Of a stretch of DNA of 64,000 nt, positions 7,328-64,000 are shown in pieces. Below the pieces are notes generated by a model. It made no database searches. It saw nothing but the letters and a program-made list of their open reading frames with translations, and was not told the origin of the DNA. Made by a program: the position numbers and the translations under genes. Numbering within the stretch: the first letter of the stretch is position 1; each line of letters begins with the position of its first letter. Origin of the DNA: Candidatus Xenobia bacterium (GTDB taxonomy: Bacteria; Vulcanimicrobiota; Xenobia; Xenobiales; QWHO01); NCBI GenBank assembly GCA_045863235.1, contig BTUM01000002.1:128001-192000 (forward strand). The letters are read 5' to 3'.

Positions 7328-7402
7328 TGGCTCCGGAGGTAGGGTTCGAACCTACGGCCAACCGGTTAACAGCCGGTTGCTCTACCACTGAGCTACTCCG
7401 GA
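7328..7402 (-). tRNA. tRNA-Asn(GTT), CCA encoded
   Basis: Reverse complement TCCGGAGTAGCTCAGTGGTAGAGCAACCGGCTGTTAACCGGTTGGCCGTAGGTTCGAACCCTACCTCCGGAGCCA forms a cloverleaf with anticodon GTT. Confidence 0.98.
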
Positions 7403-14259: not shown

Positions 14260-14964
14260 GTGAAGATCGAGCCCACTCGGTCCTACCTGACATTGAGCGC
14301 GCCTCCCCCGAAAGCCGCTCCGCTGGACCGTTTCGTGCGCTCGGCCCGGAGCGCCCTGCCTGTTGTTGGCACAGTAACAAAGCTGGCGCTGGTGCCTCCC
14401 CTGGTGTACGCCGGGGCCATGGGTGGAGCCGCCCTGGCCGTCGCTGCGACCGCCGGGATTGCACCCCTGCAAGCAGCCCTGGGTTCCGGAAGCCTGGAGG
14501 CCTTCGGCCAGTTGCTGAGCCTGGCGCCCACAGCGGGAAAGGCGGGGCTGGTGTTGGGAAGCCTGCCCGTCATCGGTCTTTTTGTGCCGCGGGGCCCCCG
14601 CCCGGGGAACCTGAGCTCCCTGCTGGCCGGACTGGGAATGGCTGCCTGCGCAACGGGCACGGGTTTGCTGGCCCACTCGGGAGGATTGGGCCTACCCGCG
14701 GTCGTGGCCCTGACCACTCTGGCCGGCGGGTCCGGAGCCATCGGTGGCTTCCGGCTGGGCGGTGGGCTGGGGGCCGTGCTCAAACGGTTCTTTCCCAACC
14801 GGATCCCTGAAGAGCAAGCCGCGGACCCACGACAGGTCGTCAGCGACCTGGCCAGGGGCCTGGTGGCCAGGGAGGCGACCCTGGTTCAGGAGAGCGAGCG
14901 CCTGGTCGTTCTCGGAGGGGTTACGGTGCGACGGCGGCAGGCGGCTCCGGGGGGAGCGCACTGA
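14260..14964 (+). CDS. hypothetical Gly/Ala-rich membrane protein
   Basis: Several hydrophobic Gly-rich helices and a C-terminal VVLGGVTVRRR; it fills the gap between annotated genes. Confidence 0.65.
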   Translation: MKIEPTRSYLTLSAPPPKAAPLDRFVRSARSALPVVGTVTKLALVPPLVYAGAMGGAALAVAATAGIAPLQAALGSGSLEAFGQLLSLAPTAGKAGLVLGSLPVIGLFVPRGPRPGNLSSLLAGLGMAACATGTGLLAHSGGLGLPAVVALTTLAGGSGAIGGFRLGGGLGAVLKRFFPNRIPEEQAADPRQVVSDLARGLVAREATLVQESERLVVLGGVTVRRRQAAPGGAH

Positions 14965-31645: not shown

Positions 31646-32033
<388 letters not shown>

Positions 32034-54928: not shown

Positions 54929-55930
54929 ATGCAGCGAGAAGCCGAAGTTTTGCGGGCACTGCTGGATGTGAGCCGGATCATCGCATCCAACTATCCCATG
55001 CCGGACGTGATCAAGCGCATCACCACCAAGTTGCGCGGCATTCTCAAAGCCGATGAGTGCTCCATCATGATCCTCGACGAGAGCCAGCAACATCTGGCTT
55101 TTGTCGAGTCCTCCGGGTTGACGCGCTGGGAGCTCGACAACATTCGCTTCCGGGTGGGCGAAGGGGTGGCCGGCTGGGTGGCCAGGCACAAGAAACCCGT
55201 CGTGATCCCTCGGTTGAGCGAAGATCCCCGTTTCATGCCGGTCAAAGAGCAGAAACGACCAATGATCAGCATGATCTGCGTGCCGCTGATCATCAAGCAA
55301 CGCTTGATCGGGGTCGTGACCCTGACCACCCGCCACGAAGACCACATCTTCTCGCAGGAAGACCTGGAGCTGACCGTACTGCTCTCAGCCCATGTCTCCT
55401 TGATGCTCGAGAACAACCGGCTCTATGAGATCTCGGTACTCGACGGTCTGACCAATCTCTACAACCGTCGCTACATGGAGCAGCGGCTCGACAAGGAGCT
55501 GTCCTACGCCCGACGCTTTCACCATCCCCTCAGCTTTTTCATGGTCGACATCGACTGGTTCAAGAAGCTCAACGACACTTACGGACACCAGGCAGGGGAC
55601 GCAGTGCTGCGCATCGTCAGCGAGCTCTTCACCAAAGCCCTGCGCGAGTACGACATCGTCGCGCGCTATGGGGGCGAGGAGTTTGCCGTGATCTTGCCCT
55701 CGACACCCCGCTCCAAGGCGGCCAGCATCGCCGAGCGGCTGCGGGCCTCGGTGGCCGAAGAGGACGTCTCCCACCAGCACCAGCTGATCCCGGTCTCGGT
55801 CAGCGTGGGGGTGGCCACCTACCCTGAAGACGGTCAGTCCAGCGAGGCTCTCATCGCCAAGGCCGACCGGGCCCTCTACCGGGCCAAGCGCAGCGGTCGC
55901 AACCGGGTCGTGCTCGCGGACGACGATTGA
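54929..55930 (+). CDS. GAF-domain diguanylate cyclase
   Basis: GEGVAGWV, DPRF, CVPL (GAF); DGLT, REYD I-site, RYGGEEF. Confidence 0.95.
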   Translation: MQREAEVLRALLDVSRIIASNYPMPDVIKRITTKLRGILKADECSIMILDESQQHLAFVESSGLTRWELDNIRFRVGEGVAGWVARHKKPVVIPRLSEDPRFMPVKEQKRPMISMICVPLIIKQRLIGVVTLTTRHEDHIFSQEDLELTVLLSAHVSLMLENNRLYEISVLDGLTNLYNRRYMEQRLDKELSYARRFHHPLSFFMVDIDWFKKLNDTYGHQAGDAVLRIVSELFTKALREYDIVARYGGEEFAVILPSTPRSKAASIAERLRASVAEEDVSHQHQLIPVSVSVGVATYPEDGQSSEALIAKADRALYRAKRSGRNRVVLADDD

Positions 55931-56484
55931 GCGATAGCTCGCTCAGGCGTTGCCACGGCCACCATGGTGCCATTGGAAAGCTCGAACCACTGGCTGACGC
56001 CACGCCCCGTGCGCCGGTCGATCTCGAGTCGGCGGTAACCGTGGGATGCACCCTGGTACTGGACGGCAAAGAGACGGTCCTCCGCCAGGCTAATCTCGCG
56101 CAGGCCAGGCACGAAGCGGTGTTGCCACAGGCGGCCCCCCGTGAGGGCGCTCAGAGCGGTCAGGTGGCCTGAGGTGCCGCGGGGACCCACGGCCATGGTG
56201 GAGTGGTCGCCCAGCGCGAAGGCGTAGACTGCCTCGCGGTCGGCCAGCAGCGTTTCCGCCCCGAAGGGCCCCGCCATGGTCTTCCACAGCGGCCTGCCGG
56301 TTTCTTCATCCAGAGCCACCACCCGATTGCCTTCGGCCACGAAGACCCGCCCACCGGCCTGGGTCATGGCCCGAGGCTGAGCCAGCCGAAACGACCACAG
56401 CTCTCGTCCAGTCTCGTCGAAGCAGCGCAGGAAATGACGGGCCCGCAGGCCGCCCTCACAGGTCAAAACGACACGGTGCATCAT
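55876..56484 (-). CDS. PQQ-like beta-propeller repeat protein
   Basis: DETGRELW, ALDEETGRPLW, ALSALTGGRLW repeats; SD GGGAGG. Confidence 0.75.
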   Translation of the reverse strand: MMHRVVLTCEGGLRARHFLRCFDETGRELWSFRLAQPRAMTQAGGRVFVAEGNRVVALDEETGRPLWKTMAGPFGAETLLADREAVYAFALGDHSTMAVGPRGTSGHLTALSALTGGRLWQHRFVPGLREISLAEDRLFAVQYQGASHGYRRLEIDRRTGRGVSQWFELSNGTMVAVATPERAIAQSSSASTTRLRPLRLAR

Positions 56485-56566
56485 GGTTGCTCGCCTCCCT
56501 TTCGAAAGGAGAAACAAGCTGTCGCAGGGCCGGGTTCCAGGTCATGTTACAGGAGTGTAAAAAGCG

Positions 56567-57277
56567 TCAGGTGAGATCGGCCACCACGCGCACCCCATTG
56601 AGCTGAAGGTGGTAGAGGAACACCAGGTGGAGCAACTCCCCGTCGTGAGGCATGGCGCCCAGACCGCGAGCCATCTCGACCGGCAAGTCGTAGGTCTGCA
56701 CGGCGCTGGCCGGCACCACGACCTCCCAGGGAAGATGCTTGACGTTGGCCCACAGGCGGAGCTCGAGAGCCAGCAGGTAAAGACACAGGTCGCTGCAGTC
56801 GCCCATGGCGATCATCCGGGTACGATGGCGCGCAATCAGATGCTCGTGCAATCCCGTGCCGTGGTGAGAGCTCAGGGAGCGCTTGGGAAAGTGCTTGAAG
56901 TGCTGGGCGAAGGGCAGGCCGGATAGCTCGGGGACGGTTTGAGCCTGAGAGCTGCCTTCCACGCAATGGGGCGGAAAGGCATGGAACTCGGGGCTATCGG
57001 GGGGATGGCTGTCCTGTGGGAAGAGAAAGTCGCGCACACCCAGCTCATGGGCACGGGCCAGGATGCGGGCCACGGCCGGCACCACGCCCTGGATGCGAGG
57101 ACTGGCCAGGGGACCCTCCGAGCAGAATCCCCGAACCATGTCCACCGTAATGCAGGCCACATGCTCGGGACCGCCCGCCTCCCCTACCAGCTTTTCCAGC
57201 TCCAGCACGGGCCAGCTGGCCTGTAACTCGATCAGGTAGTTGAGAAAGGGGGTGAAACGCTGGATCACTTCCGCCAT
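56567..57277 (-). CDS. isochorismatase/nicotinamidase-family cysteine hydrolase
   Basis: VDMVRGF, QDSH, PPHC, K...GDCSDLC. Confidence 0.9.
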   Translation of the reverse strand: MAEVIQRFTPFLNYLIELQASWPVLELEKLVGEAGGPEHVACITVDMVRGFCSEGPLASPRIQGVVPAVARILARAHELGVRDFLFPQDSHPPDSPEFHAFPPHCVEGSSQAQTVPELSGLPFAQHFKHFPKRSLSSHHGTGLHEHLIARHRTRMIAMGDCSDLCLYLLALELRLWANVKHLPWEVVVPASAVQTYDLPVEMARGLGAMPHDGELLHLVFLYHLQLNGVRVVADLT

Positions 57278-57321
57278 CCCGCCAACGATTTTTTCTCGCT
57301 TTCGAAATCCCTGCGACGGCA

Positions 57322-57349
57322 AGAGACCCGGCCTTACGGCCGGGTCTCT
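57322..57349. terminator. hairpin downstream of the small Cys4 protein gene
   Basis: AGAGACCCGGCC-TTAC-GGCCGGGTCTCT perfect 12-bp stem. Confidence 0.75.
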
Positions 57350-57378
57350 CAGCCATCCTGGGTCACCCTTCAGGGGGG

Positions 57379-57600
57379 TTACTGACCGGAAGCCACCGCT
57401 TCCGGCAAGGCGTAGTCACTCAGCGCCTCTTCAGCGATGACGCGTGAGGCGCAACGTGGAACCGCACGGCCTCCAGAGGTTACGCAGCGGGTCACAACTT
57501 GACGGAAGGCGCCCTGACCTCTGCGCCAGACCGTGAGCTTCTCTGTAATCGTCCAACCTTTGCAGACGGGGCACAGGTCCTTGCTGCGAAGGTGGTCCAT
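57379..57600 (-). CDS. 73-aa putative Zn-binding small protein
   Basis: MDHLRSKDLCPVCKGW...RC-x10-C; GGTGA just upstream of the ATG; own downstream terminator. Confidence 0.6.
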   Translation of the reverse strand: MDHLRSKDLCPVCKGWTITEKLTVWRRGQGAFRQVVTRCVTSGGRAVPRCASRVIAEEALSDYALPEAVASGQ

Positions 57601-57830
57601 TTCACCGGGAAGAACCTCTCCCAGCCGCCAGGTCGGGTTCGGTCGAACCCGAAGACTGGAAGGAATGGTGATGTAGTTGGGGTTGATAGGACTCAATGGA
57701 TCACCCCCGGTGACCTCAGTTCGTGGCGACCGATCTGAGCGAACCGGACGTGATGGCTGCGTGCTAATGTCAGCACCTCCGTGGTCTTGATGCCCGTCCA
57801 CATCGTGAATGGGCCTCCCCAATCAGATAA

Positions 57831-57857
57831 GACGCAGAAGGTAGGCAAAAAGTTTCC
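57831..57857 (-). promoter_or_regulatory. ECF-sigma-type promoter
   Basis: Minus strand GGAAAC (57857-57852), 17-nt spacer, CGTC (57834-57831). Confidence 0.55.
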
Positions 57858-57858
57858 C

Positions 57859-58647
57859 ATGAGCGAGAACTTTTTCTTGGACGGCATGAAACTCAACGTG
57901 GAGCGATCCGGTCCACCTGATGGACATCCAGTGCTTTTGTTGCACGGAAACGGGGCCTCCTGGAATGCCTGGGCCCTGAACCTCAATCACCTCGGACCCG
58001 ACTGGCTTGCCCTCGCGCCCGATCTCCCAGGCTTCGGCGAGAGTGATGCGCCCGATCGCTTCTATTCCATTCCCGATTTTGCCCGATTGCTCTGGAAACT
58101 GGTGGAGGGAAAGCGGCCGGTGCTGGTGGGAAACTCGCTGGGCTCATTGATCGCTTTCGAAATGGCAGCCCAGGGGGAGGCAGCCGGCCTGATGCTGGTG
58201 GCCGCCCCGGCCTGTGTTCCCGACGAGATGGATCCTCAGTTAGCCCGACTGATCACCTGGTTCGATCCGGCTGGCGTTCCCCAGATTCCCAACCTGGATG
58301 AGTTGAGCCGGGTCACGATCAACGCCGATGAGCGGGTCCTGGCCCTGGCCAACGCCAACATGACCAGGGCGCGCGGCTTCCTGCCAGCGCTGCCGGCCAT
58401 CTGGAACTATCGCTGGGAGAGCCGAGCCAGCCAGATCCGCTGCCCGGTCTGCCTGGTCTGGGGCGAGCAGGACGGTCTGGTCTCTCGAAGTCACCTGGAG
58501 CGCTGGCAAAAGGCGATCCCGCAGGCTCAGACGGTAACCCTGGCCAGGGCGGCCCATGGCCCCCAGTTCGATGACCCCGAGGGGTTCAATCAGGCCCTGC
58601 TGGCTTTCCTCAGCGAGGTGCGCCTTGCAGGTCGCGCAGGTGGTTGA
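57859..58647 (+). CDS. alpha/beta hydrolase
   Basis: LLHG, DLPGFG, GNSLG nucleophile elbow, WGEQD, AAH. Confidence 0.92.
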   Translation: MSENFFLDGMKLNVERSGPPDGHPVLLLHGNGASWNAWALNLNHLGPDWLALAPDLPGFGESDAPDRFYSIPDFARLLWKLVEGKRPVLVGNSLGSLIAFEMAAQGEAAGLMLVAAPACVPDEMDPQLARLITWFDPAGVPQIPNLDELSRVTINADERVLALANANMTRARGFLPALPAIWNYRWESRASQIRCPVCLVWGEQDGLVSRSHLERWQKAIPQAQTVTLARAAHGPQFDDPEGFNQALLAFLSEVRLAGRAGG

Positions 58648-59872
58648 CGATGTCCCAGATGTCCCGAGCCGTCAGCTTGGTCACAAAGGGTGGCATGGCA
58701 TTCTTGCCCAGCGCGATGTAGAGATAGAGATAGCCGTCGGTGAACTGGGGCTGGGAGTAGATCTGGCCGTTGCCGATGGCCGGCGGAGGAACCTGGGTCA
58801 GCTCGCCCACCGGACCCGGGCTCGTTCCGTTGGCCCCGTGACAGAATGAGCAATTGTTCTGATAGAGAACCTTGCCACGCTCGCCAGACTCGGGAGAGCG
58901 GGGAACCGGCCCGGTCCTGGTGCCCATGAGCTCGTTGAGCTCGACGCGATAGCGACGATCCACGACATCCTCAGAATCCTTGCCGGCGGTCAAGAACTCC
59001 GGCTTGCCCAGGGAGGCGCTGCTCATCACCAGGGCCTTGATCTGCAGCCAGGCCGGCATCTGGGTGCGAAAGTCGCTCAACTTCTGGGCGTAGTCTGCAG
59101 CGGTGGGATCGAGCCCACGGAGAGCCGTCAGGGCGTCCGTCATCGTGTTGCGGGGGTCGCCCGGGGTCAGGTTCTGGAAGACGGCCGGAGCAAGAGTTGC
59201 ATCTCCCACCGGCATGACCAGACTCAGGTCGGCTGGAGCCACTTCGCCCAGCTCGGCATTGGGATTGGTGTAAGGCTTGAGCGTCTCACCCGGCTTGTTG
59301 ACGACTTGCGCACGCATGTTGTAGGGCCAGGTGCCGCAACCGGTGCTGACGAGGCCCAGACCGACCAGCAACAGGTAGGTGACCACCGAACGTGCGCCAC
59401 GGTTCTGGAGCAGGGTGTGGGCCCGGTCGGCCGACTTGCCGTCAACCACGACCACGACATGCCCGTGGGCTACCGGCAGGTCCTCCTCGAGCGGCGGCAC
59501 CAGCTTGCGGAAGTGGCGCGTTTCCCATAAGAACATGAAGGTGGTGGTCAAAATCGCCGTGATCATGCCCATCTCATACATCAAGAGGGCGTTGATCGGC
59601 ACCGCCACGATAGGGTGACCGTCGGTGCGCAATTTCCAGTCGAGCTGGGTGTACGCGATGAACGAGAAACCGAGGATGATGGCGGTACCCCACATGATGC
59701 GCACCGCGGTGCGCATGTGGAAGGGTCGCTCGCGATGCGGCGGGATGGGAGCCTCAGGCAGCGGGTAGGGCGAGCGGATCTCGATGTCCTCAGGGTCGAG
59801 GTTCTCGTCGATCAGCAGGCGGTGGGCCGCCAGGGCATCTTCACAGTGTTCGAACTCAGCTGCAACTCGCAT
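58610..59872 (-). CDS. Alternative Complex III ActD-ActE fusion (membrane domain + monoheme cytochrome c)
   Basis: RSPYP and YEMG (ActD-like) at the N-terminus, internal lipobox LVSTGC, C-terminal CSFCH with a distal MP. Confidence 0.75.
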   Translation of the reverse strand: MRVAAEFEHCEDALAAHRLLIDENLDPEDIEIRSPYPLPEAPIPPHRERPFHMRTAVRIMWGTAIILGFSFIAYTQLDWKLRTDGHPIVAVPINALLMYEMGMITAILTTTFMFLWETRHFRKLVPPLEEDLPVAHGHVVVVVDGKSADRAHTLLQNRGARSVVTYLLLVGLGLVSTGCGTWPYNMRAQVVNKPGETLKPYTNPNAELGEVAPADLSLVMPVGDATLAPAVFQNLTPGDPRNTMTDALTALRGLDPTAADYAQKLSDFRTQMPAWLQIKALVMSSASLGKPEFLTAGKDSEDVVDRRYRVELNELMGTRTGPVPRSPESGERGKVLYQNNCSFCHGANGTSPGPVGELTQVPPPAIGNGQIYSQPQFTDGYLYLYIALGKNAMPPFVTKLTARDIWDIVNHLRDLQGAPR

Positions 59873-59885
59873 ACTCTGTCACCCG

Positions 59886-61310
59886 TCACTCACCGGATTG
59901 GAAGTAGTTGACTTTGACGCCCGCCACCTCGCGCTCGATCTGGCGGACCCTGGTTTCGGCGACCTCCCAGAACGGGAGAATCGGGAAGATGCGGCAGAAC
60001 ACGCACAGTCCGCCGATCACCCAGCCAAACGAGCCCACCACGATGCTCAGCTCAGTCAAGCTGGGCGAGTAGTGAGTCGTGGCTCCGTTGAGGTGGTTGT
60101 AGATCTCCTGGCCGGGGATGAAGATCACGACGCGCTCGATATACATGCAGATGTTGACCACGATGGACAGCACGAACATCGGCAGGCGGCTGCGCCGGAA
60201 GGACTTGGAGGCCAGGCAGAAGAGCGGCATCACGAAGTTGCCCACGATGAGGAACCACCAGGCCGGAGCATAGGCTCCGAAGGCGTTGTACCACATGTAG
60301 TCCATCTTCTCGGGCTCGTGGGTGTAGTAGGCCGGCAAAAAGTCGTTCCAGAACAGATAGGCCCAGGCCAGCCCCAGCACCAGCCAGACGCGCCCGAGCA
60401 TGTCGTAGTGCACCGAGGTGATCAGCTTCTGGTAGGGTTTATAGGTCCAGTAGAGGATGGTCAGCATCGTAATCACCGCGGCCACCCCCGAGTAGAGGGC
60501 GCCCACGAAGAAGAGCGGACCGAAGACCTCCGAGTGCCAGCCCGGCACGACCTCCATCGCGAAGTCCCAGCTCACGATGGTGTGCACCGAGATCACGACC
60601 GGCAAGATGACGACGCTGTAGAGAGCGGCGGCCTCCTTGACGCGCTTCCACTCCTCGGCGGTGCCGCGCCAACCCCAGCTCAGCAGCGTGTAGAGCGTGC
60701 GCATCCATCCCTTCATGCGCGGCCGGGCGATGCCCAGGTCGGGAATCATGGTCACGTAGAGGAAGAGAACCGACCCCGTCAGGTAGGTGGAGATGGCGAA
60801 CACGTCCCACATCAGCATACTCTTGAAGTTAGGCCACAAGAGACGCGAGTTGGGGTAGGGCAGCATGTAGTAGAAGACTTCGAAGCGACCCAGGTGGATG
60901 AGCGGGAACGAGCCAGCCGCCGGCAGGGTGAAGAGGGTAATCACCTCGGCCACCCGGGTCACGACGCCCTTCCATTCCGCTCCGCAAAGTCTCAAGAGGG
61001 CCGAGATGAGCGCGCCGGCGTGGGCCACGCCGATCCAGAAGACGAACGTAATGATGTAATAGCCCCAGAAGACGGGCAGGTGCAGGCCGGTCTTCCCAAA
61101 ACCCACGAAGTTCTGCTCGAGCCACTTGAAGAAGGCCCAGCCGATCAGGCAGAGGCTGATGGCGATGACGACGTTCGACTTCCAGCCCTGTTTGCCAACC
61201 GGTTCGAAACAGGCATCGTAGATGTCGGGCACCGACATGTCGGGTGCCACGAAATTATAGTTGATGTGATGCGAATGGGCTTTCTGGTGCCCACCAACTG
61301 CCTCGGTCAT
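59886..61310 (-). CDS. actC: NrfD/PsrC-family quinol-interacting membrane subunit (ActC)
   Basis: WGYYIITFVFWIGVAHAG, HLGR, WPNFKS...WD, SVHTIVSWDF, GWHS. Confidence 0.93.
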   Translation of the reverse strand: MTEAVGGHQKAHSHHINYNFVAPDMSVPDIYDACFEPVGKQGWKSNVVIAISLCLIGWAFFKWLEQNFVGFGKTGLHLPVFWGYYIITFVFWIGVAHAGALISALLRLCGAEWKGVVTRVAEVITLFTLPAAGSFPLIHLGRFEVFYYMLPYPNSRLLWPNFKSMLMWDVFAISTYLTGSVLFLYVTMIPDLGIARPRMKGWMRTLYTLLSWGWRGTAEEWKRVKEAAALYSVVILPVVISVHTIVSWDFAMEVVPGWHSEVFGPLFFVGALYSGVAAVITMLTILYWTYKPYQKLITSVHYDMLGRVWLVLGLAWAYLFWNDFLPAYYTHEPEKMDYMWYNAFGAYAPAWWFLIVGNFVMPLFCLASKSFRRSRLPMFVLSIVVNICMYIERVVIFIPGQEIYNHLNGATTHYSPSLTELSIVVGSFGWVIGGLCVFCRIFPILPFWEVAETRVRQIEREVAGVKVNYFQSGE

Positions 61311-61337
61311 GCGGCCTCCACGGTGTTACAGGCGGTT

Positions 61338-62186
61338 CTACAGAGCATCGGGCACCCTCTGAGGTCGAAGATAGATGACGTGCGGTTTGGTATCAAACAA
61401 CTCGTCGAGCACCTTGTAGGAACGGGATGCGTTCTCGTGCAGCACGACGTTCACCGCCGAGTGCGGGTCGTTCATGTCGCCAAAGGTGATGGCTGAGGTG
61501 GGGCAGGCCTGCGCGCAGGCCGAACGCAGCTCGCCGTCCTGCACCGGATTCCCGGCCACCTTGGCGTCGAGAAAACTGCGCCGGATGCGCTGCACGCAGA
61601 AGGTGCACTTCTCCATCACGCCCTCGCTGCGCACGCTCACGTCCGGGTTGAGCATCTGCTCCATGGGGGCGTCCCACTTGGGCGTGAAAAAGTTGAAGAT
61701 TCGCACGCGATAAGGGCAGTTGTTGGCGCACACGCGGGTTCCCACGCAACGGTTGTAGACCTGCGCGTTCAGGCCGTCATTGGTGTGCACGGCCGCAAAC
61801 ACCGGGCAAACCGATTCGCAGGGGGCGGTGCCGCACTGCTGGCACAACATCGGCACGAAGGTCGCTACCACGTTGGGGTAACCGTCGCCCGAGTAAGCGT
61901 CCTGCTGGATGTGCTTCTCGGTCTCTTCCTGATCGCTGGCCAAGCGGCCCGTGCTGGTCTTGTGGTGGAACTCATCTTGCCAGAAGCGGTCCACCCGCAT
62001 CCAGTCCATCAGACGACCCATGGCGATCTGGTCGGCCCCGATGGTTTGAATGTTGTTCTCGGCCCGGCAGGCGATCACGCAGGCTTTGCAGCCTGTGCAT
62101 CGGTCGGTGTCGATCACCATGCCCCACTGGTAGGTGCCGACGGTCTGGATGCTCGTTTGCAGGGTATTTTTGGGTTCCTCGGCCAT
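61338..62186 (-). CDS. 4Fe-4S ferredoxin subunit (ActB2/QrcC-like)
   Basis: CTGCKAC...C, CQQC...PCESVCP, RCVGTRVCANNCPY, MEKCTFC, CAQACP. Confidence 0.93.
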   Translation of the reverse strand: MAEEPKNTLQTSIQTVGTYQWGMVIDTDRCTGCKACVIACRAENNIQTIGADQIAMGRLMDWMRVDRFWQDEFHHKTSTGRLASDQEETEKHIQQDAYSGDGYPNVVATFVPMLCQQCGTAPCESVCPVFAAVHTNDGLNAQVYNRCVGTRVCANNCPYRVRIFNFFTPKWDAPMEQMLNPDVSVRSEGVMEKCTFCVQRIRRSFLDAKVAGNPVQDGELRSACAQACPTSAITFGDMNDPHSAVNVVLHENASRSYKVLDELFDTKPHVIYLRPQRVPDAL

Positions 62187-62195
62187 CGATTCTCC

Positions 62196-64000
62196 TCAGT
62201 GCGGCAGAGTAGCCTTCTCGAGACCCATGATCCGGCGGTCAAAGGTCGCGATGAACTGGCTCTTCTTGGTATTGGTCACGGTCACCTGAGTGGAAGCCCA
62301 GGGATTGGCGGGAGTGCCGAGCAAAGCCGACATCGGGTTCATCGGCTTCACGACGTCGTCGGTATAGCGGCCATAGGCGCCCTCGGCGTGGCCGTTGCCG
62401 GCCGGAATCGCGATAGCGTCGACATGCACAGCCTGAGTGGGGAAAGCCGGACCGACCAGCTTGGCGCCCCCCTCACCGGTGATCTCGAGCAGGTCGCCTC
62501 GCTTCACCTTCAGGCTCTGGCCCAGCTCCCCGAAGGGGTTGATCTCGATCCAGCTGGCCCAGGCCACCGTGGTGAGAGGGTCAGGCAACTCCTGCATCCA
62601 GGGGACGTTTGCCCGCTGGCCATCGCCGAAGTTCACGGAGGAGCTGGCGATCAGCGTGGCTTTGCCCTGGGCCCGCGGATTGGGCTCGCTGAGGGCGCCC
62701 GCGGCGGCCGCCTCCAGACGACCCCAGGCGCTGACGCCAGAGGGCACCTCGCCGCCCGGGCTCTTCGCCGGAGACGGAGGCATGGCCACCTCGTGGTGGT
62801 AGCGGTCAAAGCTGGTATTGGCTTTGGACCACAGCCCTCCCCGGGCCACGGCGGCGTCAAAACGCGTGCCCAGAACCTGGGCCAGGACGTCACGGAAGGT
62901 CAGGGCGCGAGCGGGAATGGGTAGCTTGATTCCGGCCGCCCGAGCCGAGGTGATGAGCGCATCGCAGACCGAGCGCGTGTCCGAACGCGGCTTCACGACC
63001 GGCTGGCTGAGGTTGTAGACCTGACCGAAGGGAGCGTCCACCAGGCAGTCGCCCCACTCCTCCATCCAGTTGCGGCTGGGAAGGGTCACGTCGCACAGCG
63101 CGGTGGTCTCGTTGGCAAAGCACGAGAAGGCGATCTTGGTCTTGACGTTCTTGAGCTTTTCGGCAAACTTCAGGCTCGCGGGCAGCATGTAGACAGGGTT
63201 GCAGTCGAACACCCAGACGCTGCTCCAGCTCCCCTGGTCGAAGCCCTCCAGAGCCTCGCGGGTGGACAACACCACGCCCGGATCGGGCTGCATCTCTCCC
63301 AGCGTGGGCAAGAGATCGGTCTCGCAGGTGGCGATGGTGCCCGAAACCAGCTTGCTCAATGAGTGCATGGCGGCCAGGCTGGCTGCATCGAAGGAGTTGT
63401 CGGGACCCGCGATGACCAGGGGCTTGCGCGCCCCGGCCAGACGCTTGGCCAGCCGCTCGATCAGGTCCTTGGGGCAACCGCTCAGCTCACTGGCCTTCTC
63501 AGCGGTGGCATTGGCGTAAATCGATGGCCAACCGGAGCGGCTGGCCCCGATCAGATTGCCCAAGGCGGCCGCCACCCAGCCTTCGCTCCCCGGTCGCACC
63601 GGGAGCCACCGGTCGGCGTTGGAGCAGCTGAGGTTCATGCGCGAGGAGACGGAAACCATCACCCCGCGGTTGCGATTCAGCCCCTGCCGGAACTGACCGT
63701 AGAGGTGGCTGTAGTGGATGGCCAGCGGGCCCTCGACCAGGAAGTCGCGGCCAAAGTTGACCACGTAGTCGGCCTGGTCGAGCGGGTAGTAAGGCAGCTC
63801 GGCCTTACCGGTCAGCGTCTTGATGACGCCCCGCTCGGTCTCGCTGGAGGGGAATTGAAGCACCCAGACCCGGGCACCGATGGCCTTGGCCACGGCCAGA
63901 ATCAGCGTGCCGCGCGAGCCCTGGAGACGATCCACGATGAACAACCCGCCGTTGCCGCCGGTCAGAGCGGCCTTGAGCGGGTCCTGGGCCACATCCCAGG
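62196..64000 (-). CDS. molybdopterin-oxidoreductase-fold subunit (ActB1/QrcB-like), 5'-truncated by the window edge
   Basis: NADRWLPVRPGSE, NET...CDVTLP...EEWGD, ANVPWMQELPDP...WIEINP; frame open to base 64000. Confidence 0.88.
   Translation of the reverse strand, partial: WDVAQDPLKAALTGGNGGLFIVDRLQGSRGTLILAVAKAIGARVWVLQFPSSETERGVIKTLTGKAELPYYPLDQADYVVNFGRDFLVEGPLAIHYSHLYGQFRQGLNRNRGVMVSVSSRMNLSCSNADRWLPVRPGSEGWVAAALGNLIGASRSGWPSIYANATAEKASELSGCPKDLIERLAKRLAGARKPLVIAGPDNSFDAASLAAMHSLSKLVSGTIATCETDLLPTLGEMQPDPGVVLSTREALEGFDQGSWSSVWVFDCNPVYMLPASLKFAEKLKNVKTKIAFSCFANETTALCDVTLPSRNWMEEWGDCLVDAPFGQVYNLSQPVVKPRSDTRSVCDALITSARAAGIKLPIPARALTFRDVLAQVLGTRFDAAVARGGLWSKANTSFDRYHHEVAMPPSPAKSPGGEVPSGVSAWGRLEAAAAGALSEPNPRAQGKATLIASSSVNFGDGQRANVPWMQELPDPLTTVAWASWIEINPFGELGQSLKVKRGDLLEITGEGGAKLVGPAFPTQAVHVDAIAIPAGNGHAEGAYGRYTDDVVKPMNPMSALLGTPANPWASTQVTVTNTKKSQFIATFDRRIMGLEKATLPH

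Follow-up and report, generated by a model that had tools for sequence, protein, structure and literature searches.

The minus strand of the window analysed here, a stretch of 64,000 nucleotides from a Candidatus Xenobia bacterium (contig BTUM01000002.1; all coordinates are positions in this window), carries a gene for a 105-aa protein with four conserved cysteines. The best explanation of the locus as a whole is probably that this Cys4 gene is transcribed from an ECF-type promoter and has a leader that acts as a static translational damper, not as a ligand-sensing two-state switch. A sigma factor of the sigmaE/sigmaW type would transcribe a single-gene mRNA from about 57824, as placed from the promoter, to a hairpin at 57350-57321, and the protein would be translated from a weak UUG at 57696. 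The third hairpin of the leader, found in one genus only, would bury the unusually long Shine-Dalgarno (SD) sequence of that UUG, and the strong SD is predicted to compete with the hairpin, giving low output despite abundant mRNA. Ribosomes would be likely to enter at a more open SD on the second hairpin, whether this is a standby site or belongs to a true AUU start.

The locus is single copy in the genome. A DNA search found copies of 76-95% identity in all four of the remaining genus genomes, and in 2 of 36 more distant genomes the match was restricted to the short 3' hairpin region. Comparisons within the genus are based on a five-genome alignment, which holds four distinct leaders. What we call the other lineage is a set of 10 orthologous loci, from a genus of another family (6 of 6 genomes, in a protein search of the class) and from four metagenome loci.

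Coding from TTG 57696

The first-pass annotation had a 73-aa Cys4 protein starting at ATG 57600 behind a leader of about 225 nt. The 73-codon ORF does exist and the four cysteines (C42, C45, C71 and C82 in our numbering) are indeed encoded, but the frame runs on upstream to TTG 57696, giving a gene of 105 codons at 57379..57696 on the minus strand. Among the five genomes 19 of 21 changes in 57696-57601, counting extra alleles, are at third codon positions (p 8e-8), and 18 are synonymous against 1 non-synonymous, with the proportions reversed in the other frames. As third-position changes dominate in this way the stretch is coding, and coding from 57696 on is shown by the codon pattern.

With regard to the start itself, the TTG 57696 column is the start codon in all 10 loci of the other lineage (nine ATG and one GTG, each with GGAGG before it), and three further proteins in a representative library (P0006-P0008) begin at this column too. 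The protein is thus at least 105 aa, given that the start column is shared with the orthologues, and from the same orthologues we infer that UUG 57696 is the initiation codon. Its extended SD, GGGGGTGAT (57700..57708, minus strand), aligns with the GGAGG of the orthologues, and is the strongest among five candidate starts, at -17.7 kcal/mol versus -7.0 for ATG 57600, these energies being computed with a generic anti-SD. ATG 57600 is an internal codon, Met33, and the 13 standalone orthologues from outside the genus-like group all have S, A or V in its place. The 105-aa sequence is present in the public protein collection, from which the 73-aa and 147-aa readings are absent. The first-pass annotation had named translation of a longer ORF from TTG 57822 as something that would refute it, and a longer ORF is indeed coding, but the start is TTG 57696, possibly together with ATT 57768, and not TTG 57822, from which the frame is broken in three of the five genomes.

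Promoter and transcript

The promoter proposed by the first-pass annotation, GGAAAC at 57857-57852, a 17-nt spacer and CGTC at 57834-57831, is there as described. In our feature list the -35 element is GGAAACTT (57850..57857, minus strand), which overlaps the initiation region of a divergent alpha/beta hydrolase gene (57859..58647, plus strand; Pfam Abhydrolase_1, E 2.4e-23), and the -10 element is GCGTCT (57830..57835, minus strand), which is invariant in all five genomes of the genus though the spacer varies, and which is G[G/A]TT in the other lineage. The motif GG[A/G]AACT, 16-17 bases and then CGTC or G[G/A]TT, precedes the gene at all 15 loci examined. They span two different gene neighbourhoods, as in the other lineage the hydrolase neighbour is replaced by a gene that, from its translation, we take to be RNase PH-like. 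Since the divergent neighbour differs between the lineages, the motif belongs to the Cys4 gene. Its distance from the gene is 163-184 bases in the genus, 65-74 in nine of the other-lineage loci and 139 in the tenth (L041).

A matrix built from 14 of the orthologous sites, with a score cut-off of 17 or more, finds sites in the source genome before 2 of 14 ECF sigma genes, against 18 such windows among the 5913 scored for genes (p about 0.001, Fisher). One of these two sigma genes was confirmed as RpoE/SigW-like, and other top-scoring sites lie before rseP, msrA and an ABC transporter gene. The number of matches genome-wide at the true spacing, 20, falls within the 13-27 seen at control spacings; the intergenic share is 16 of 20 at the true spacing versus 3-13 at the controls. 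A loose promoter pattern, run genome-wide, gave no peak at the right spacing. In PMC8103513 the canonical ECF boxes are AAC and CGT, and the E. coli RpoE -35 is GGAACTT. The sites at our locus, GG[A/G]AACTT with 16-17 nt to CGTC or GTT, resemble the autoregulated ECF promoters described there, both in sequence and in that the motif recurs ahead of ECF sigma genes, of rseP and of msrA within one genome. The promoter is, on this sequence evidence, very probably of ECF type.

The candidate regulon sites in the source genome (G000) are at C15:69858, C50:43791, C84:7584, C77:25106, C9:40874, C58:22029 and 31141, C120:13421 and C19:46125. The candidate regulon genes are the two ECF sigma genes (C15, about 70.0-70.6 kb, and C50, 43863-44510), whose products are the candidate sigma factors for the promoter, rseP, msrA, and genes for an ABC transporter ATPase, an AAA protein, presumably of the MoxR type, and secreted proteins. 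Similar-looking promoter sites recur in relatives. This is a first sketch of an ECF regulon in the Vulcanimicrobiota/Eremiobacterota, useful but modest.

The -35 element abuts the hydrolase ATG (window 57850-57861), so the divergent transcripts must overlap or the two promoters interleave. A TG-C-TAAT string on the plus strand of the second leader hairpin could be the -10 of the hydrolase gene.

At the other end of the unit there is a G+C-rich terminator-like hairpin (57321..57350, minus strand; -28.9 kcal/mol), a hairpin being found there in all five genomes, and past it lies an isochorismatase-family gene (56567..57277, minus strand; Pfam PF00857, E 3.5e-15). The strong terminator that had been claimed after the ORF is borne out as to a strong hairpin past the stop codon, but a consensus terminator scan of 56500-59000 gave 0 terminators, because the U tract is weak in the source genome; a full U tract follows the hairpin solely in G004, one of the five genomes.

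Among 23 listed runs that contain the stretch, 15 are recorded as RNA; four of these were examined, all as assembled contigs. Six contigs from these four runs lie on leader plus ORF, joining the two, and none bridges into a neighbour, in agreement with the self-contained transcription unit of the first-pass annotation. Their upstream ends include 57783, 57796, 57805 and 57861, and one contig of the G004 type has the ORF and 137 leader bases, where the predicted G004-type leader has 148. The downstream ends, at 57357-57372, are short of the hairpin, a weak hint that transcription ends there. Contigs show no starts, strand or level, and the end at 57861 is 37 bases upstream of the start predicted at 57824, so that the contigs do no more than hint at an mRNA of about 500 nt carrying this gene alone.

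The leader and what it may do

The non-coding leader is thus about 127 nt (57697..57824, minus strand), not about 225 nt, the 3' 96 nt of the latter being coding. Three hairpins are predicted in it. P1 (57792..57814) is predicted in all five genomes at -11.9 to -19.8 kcal/mol, with its sequence and length varying and its fold kept, and as it carries frame-breaking indels it is non-coding. P2 (57761..57780) includes the SD-like GGAGGTG, and has ATT 57768-57766, a candidate AUU start, in its loop and 3' arm; the P2 stem, GGAGGTG and ATT are invariant in all five genomes, and the two loop bases before the ATT alone vary. P3 (57700..57754) coincides with an open in-frame extension of 24 codons, and at its base ATCAC and TCCGGT pair with the SD region of the UUG. 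P3 has a predicted stability of -26 to -31 kcal/mol, and the fold is reproduced by RNAalifold.

The claim of a structured leader hiding an SD holds up in that P3 pairs with the SD and compensatory changes support the pairing. In P2 and P3 together 4 of 26 pairs are changed on both sides, every one through G004, a score reached by 1 of 500 shuffles and with slid controls at 0-1, the structure having been derived from the same sequences, with four distinct leaders, as were used in the covariation test. Pairs broken in P3 number two in G004 and one in G001. Opening the region from SD to UUG is predicted to cost 13.9-16.1 kcal/mol at 37 C in the four distinct long leaders. In the other lineage, where 9 of 10 loci have unstructured leaders of 30-39 nt, opening from SD to start costs 3.6-7.4 kcal/mol in these nine and 10.6 in L041. 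At L041 (L041:31-203) the leader is 104 nt long, is unrelated to ours by covariance model and covers its SD with a hairpin, and at its predicted transcript start there is a short out-of-frame frame starting with ATG.

A covariance model of the leader, R1, which scored 73 candidates per genome, finds it in 5 of 44 class genomes, one copy each and all of the same genus, and no good match was found near the 10 orthologous loci of the other lineage. By this model the leader is confined to one genus.

It is possible that the hairpins do no more than stabilise the mRNA, by a 5' stem-loop and a compact fold, with the long SD outcompeting P3 and no regulation at all. The short unstructured leaders at nine of the ten other-lineage loci and the limitation of ours to one genus are in keeping with this, as is the fold z-score of the true leader taken apart, just -1.87 (that of the coding part is -1.65). 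However the second SD and the arm that pairs with the first hardly vary while P1 drifts, and the separate long leader of L041 also pairs its SD, and we think mRNA stabilisation alone improbable.

An RNA thermometer, in which heating would melt the base of P3 and free the SD, would have the layout of the ROSE elements treated in PMC3669281, with several hairpins, the SD in the 3'-most of them and a stress-induced mRNA, and P3 does have bulges and G-U pairs. However predicted unpairing of the SD is 0.20-0.22 over 15-55 C (0.40-0.45 in G004), and opening at 55 C is still predicted to cost about 10-12 kcal/mol. The Pseudomonas sensing hairpins in the same source are at -4.1 to -7.6 kcal/mol, making P3 4-6 times more stable. 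The leader also differs from those thermometers in having AUCAC/UCCGGU and no U(U/C)GCU facing the SD, and the gene is not a small heat-shock gene. A thermometer is accordingly a very unlikely reading of these predictions.

The first-pass annotation had proposed a switch of about 225 nt, a riboswitch or dual-function sRNA controlling the 73-aa protein by anti-SD/anti-anti-SD logic. It had in its favour the fold z-score of -2.94 for the 227-nt stretch, which beats 199 of 200 shuffles, and a multi-stem 3' fold that is predicted in all five genomes. All the hairpin arms it named are present. The long-range pairing of TTGGGG (57822-57817) with CCCCAA (57682-57677), among the first codons, is also there and can form in 5 of 5 genomes, but it shows no compensatory change; it may add to burial of the SD.

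The rest of that model fares badly. Of the alternative helices that it named, GGACG/CGTCC, GGTTCG/CGAACT and TCGGGTTCG/CGAACCCGA are each broken in all four other genomes. The 3' domain is coding, and has 0 compensatory changes in 20 pairs, with 407 of 500 shuffles as good. The upstream GGTGAT offered as an alternative partner is itself the SD of TTG 57696, and the logic was built around an ATG that is the unconserved Met33. In Rfam there is no match on 57601-57857 even at E 5, and for 55000-60500 the five weak matches are all on the terminator region and none on the leader. A motif recurring across lineages or genes, as expected of a riboswitch, was not found in the 44 class genomes or at the 10 other-lineage loci, nor were two conserved exclusive folds found, and with one copy in one genus the leader is unlike a riboswitch family. 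We take the 225-nt switch to be largely refuted, and to be largely an artefact of the wrong start codon; what is left of it as an explanation is hardly credible.

The static damper, then, remains our preferred reading, and it can be extended, compatibly, by the suggestion that AUU 57768, which is in frame, serves the ribosomes of this genus as an additional or even the main start. The gene would then have two starts and also give a form of 129 aa, longer by 24 residues rich in Ser, Pro and Arg, P3 would be under coding as well as pairing constraint, and output would depend on IF3 as for infC. The perfect GGAGGTG and the in-frame ATT, 72 nt upstream of TTG 57696, are the invariant elements of P2 noted above. 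All four distinct leaders keep an open frame from ATT to TTG, as do the protein records P0020 and P0022, and the sole indel in this stretch is of 3 nt, the frame-breaking ones being upstream of the SD. Of the changes 13 of 23 are at position 3 (p 0.019), and among single-base codon changes 9 are synonymous and 3 not, against 1 and 10 in each other frame; a simulation gives p 0.015, with a stop arising in 56% of its copies. In the inner helix of P3 each of the three compensatory pairs joins two third positions, and the AUU site is predicted to open at 9.1-10.3 kcal/mol, more easily than the UUG site.

The source organism itself appears from its sequence to use AUU in infC, where an SD and ATT stand directly behind an in-frame stop (G000 C1, about 27374, minus strand). 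In five of six genomes examined (L102, L109, L110, L112 and L113) infC likewise has an SD and ATT at its start; these were not seen at that place in L111.

Several observations stand against an AUU start. The coding test was post hoc, with most of its signal coming from a single divergent genome (G004), and pairing also explains several of the synonymous changes. Many amino-acid changes are tolerated in the extension, which the other lineage lacks. The genome contains 83 copies of GGAGGT-N5-8-ATT, no more than the 98 and 104 for the control triplets AAT and TTT. Holding the upstream strand open reduces the cost of opening the UUG site by just 0.3-2.1 kcal/mol in three of the five genomes. Finally, the invariant bases could be conserved as a plus-strand -10-like TAAT for the hydrolase gene, though G004 lacks the last T. 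We therefore put initiation at AUU 57768 as a serious possibility on which we would lean to the negative.

There are known cases to compare. Enterococcus faecalis ebpA is AUU-initiated with a strong SD, its ATT being 120 bp upstream of the annotated start (PMC4447247), and Staphylococcus aureus cvfC1, encoding a small putative zinc-finger protein, is also AUU-initiated (PMC13009471). Our locus is like infC, ebpA and cvfC1 in having, ahead of the annotated start, an ATT in frame behind a strong SD, and like cvfC1 in its small zinc-finger-type product. It differs in that the downstream UUG has kept a long SD of its own and stands where the orthologues start, so that two starts are possible, and in having a covarying, SD-hiding hairpin between the candidate starts. 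In the fullest form, which we consider rather unlikely, an ECF-induced mRNA would be read from an AUU that is gated by IF3 and lies on an open hairpin, and from the ancestral start, by now a weaker UUG inside a covarying hairpin that is itself translated; ribosomes starting at the AUU would make the long form and unfold this hairpin, freeing the UUG.

If initiation at the AUU is real, this would be a compact natural case of two non-AUG starts with an SD-hiding hairpin between them that is constrained by coding as well as by pairing, and one that is invisible to gene callers. If the fullest form is true, transcription under stress would be filtered through initiation fidelity, which would set how much of a zinc-ribbon regulator is made and in which form, the domain of this regulator being common to proteins of mobile elements.

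The protein, its family and the surrounding window

The cysteines are spaced C42-x2-C45-x25-C71-x10-C82, and all four are invariant in 24 of 24 aligned rows. In a wider set of 74 rows C42, C45 and C71 are invariant and C82 is present in at least 90%. The predicted model (mean pLDDT 65.8 and 70.8, with the N-terminal third at low confidence) has a three- to four-stranded beta-hairpin core, with strands at 37-41, 48-58, 62-72 and 85-92, and the four conserved cysteines are at the ends of a beta hairpin, as in zinc ribbons. Searches for family, structure and phage relatives gave no significant sequence or fold match naming the protein. The weak neighbours were ZPR1, RPA12/TFIIS and Ogr-type ribbons. 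An Ogr/Delta zinc finger was considered and rejected, as hhalign against P2 Ogr aligned 7-9 columns, the CxxC only, at a probability of about 1%, and the Ogr family was not among the Pfam matches of the 74 members. Our protein differs from the ZPR1/TFIIS/RPA12 ribbons and the Ogr/Delta activators in having ten residues between the third and fourth cysteines, a conserved IPSS/T N-terminal segment and no acidic hairpin tip. Judging by the model it is an unclassified Cys4 protein of zinc-ribbon type and represents a new small family.

Standalone orthologues are found in 11 genomes, belonging to two genera of one order, and any match at all in 15 of 401 genomes. The same Cys4 domain starts 57 longer proteins of 178-417 aa. 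Such longer proteins make up a sizeable family, of 178-432 aa, and often have further CxxC fingers and a common C-terminal motif; examples are L098:2944-3951, those in L099, L100 and L101, and P0010, P0012-P0014 and P0024-P0078. At L098, the one locus checked, the neighbours are DNA methyltransferase, primase/helicase, serine integrase and excisionase-like genes, and L098 is a mobile element. Our search of the literature on Eremiobacterota zinc ribbons found no description of the protein. From fold class and context we suggest, tentatively and at somewhat less than even confidence, that it may be a small zinc-dependent regulator that binds nucleic acid or RNA polymerase, in an envelope or oxidative stress regulon. 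The corrected gene start and an unclassified zinc-ribbon family are of some interest in a phylum as little studied as the Vulcanimicrobiota/Eremiobacterota.

With regard to database labels, two records (L026 and L027) labelled 'uncultured Burkholderiales bacterium' hold the Cys4 gene at 95-98% protein identity. The other records with the gene are mostly labelled Vulcanimicrobiota/Eremiobacterota, and the Burkholderiales labels look mistaken.

Elsewhere in the window there is an alternative complex III gene cluster at 58610-63992 (minus strand), in which the gene at 58610-59872 encodes an ActD domain fused to a cytochrome c domain. The window also includes a tmRNA with a 20-residue tag (31646-32033, plus strand), a tRNA-Asn (7328-7402, minus strand) and a 93-nt tRNA-Arg(GCG) call (14413-14505, plus strand).
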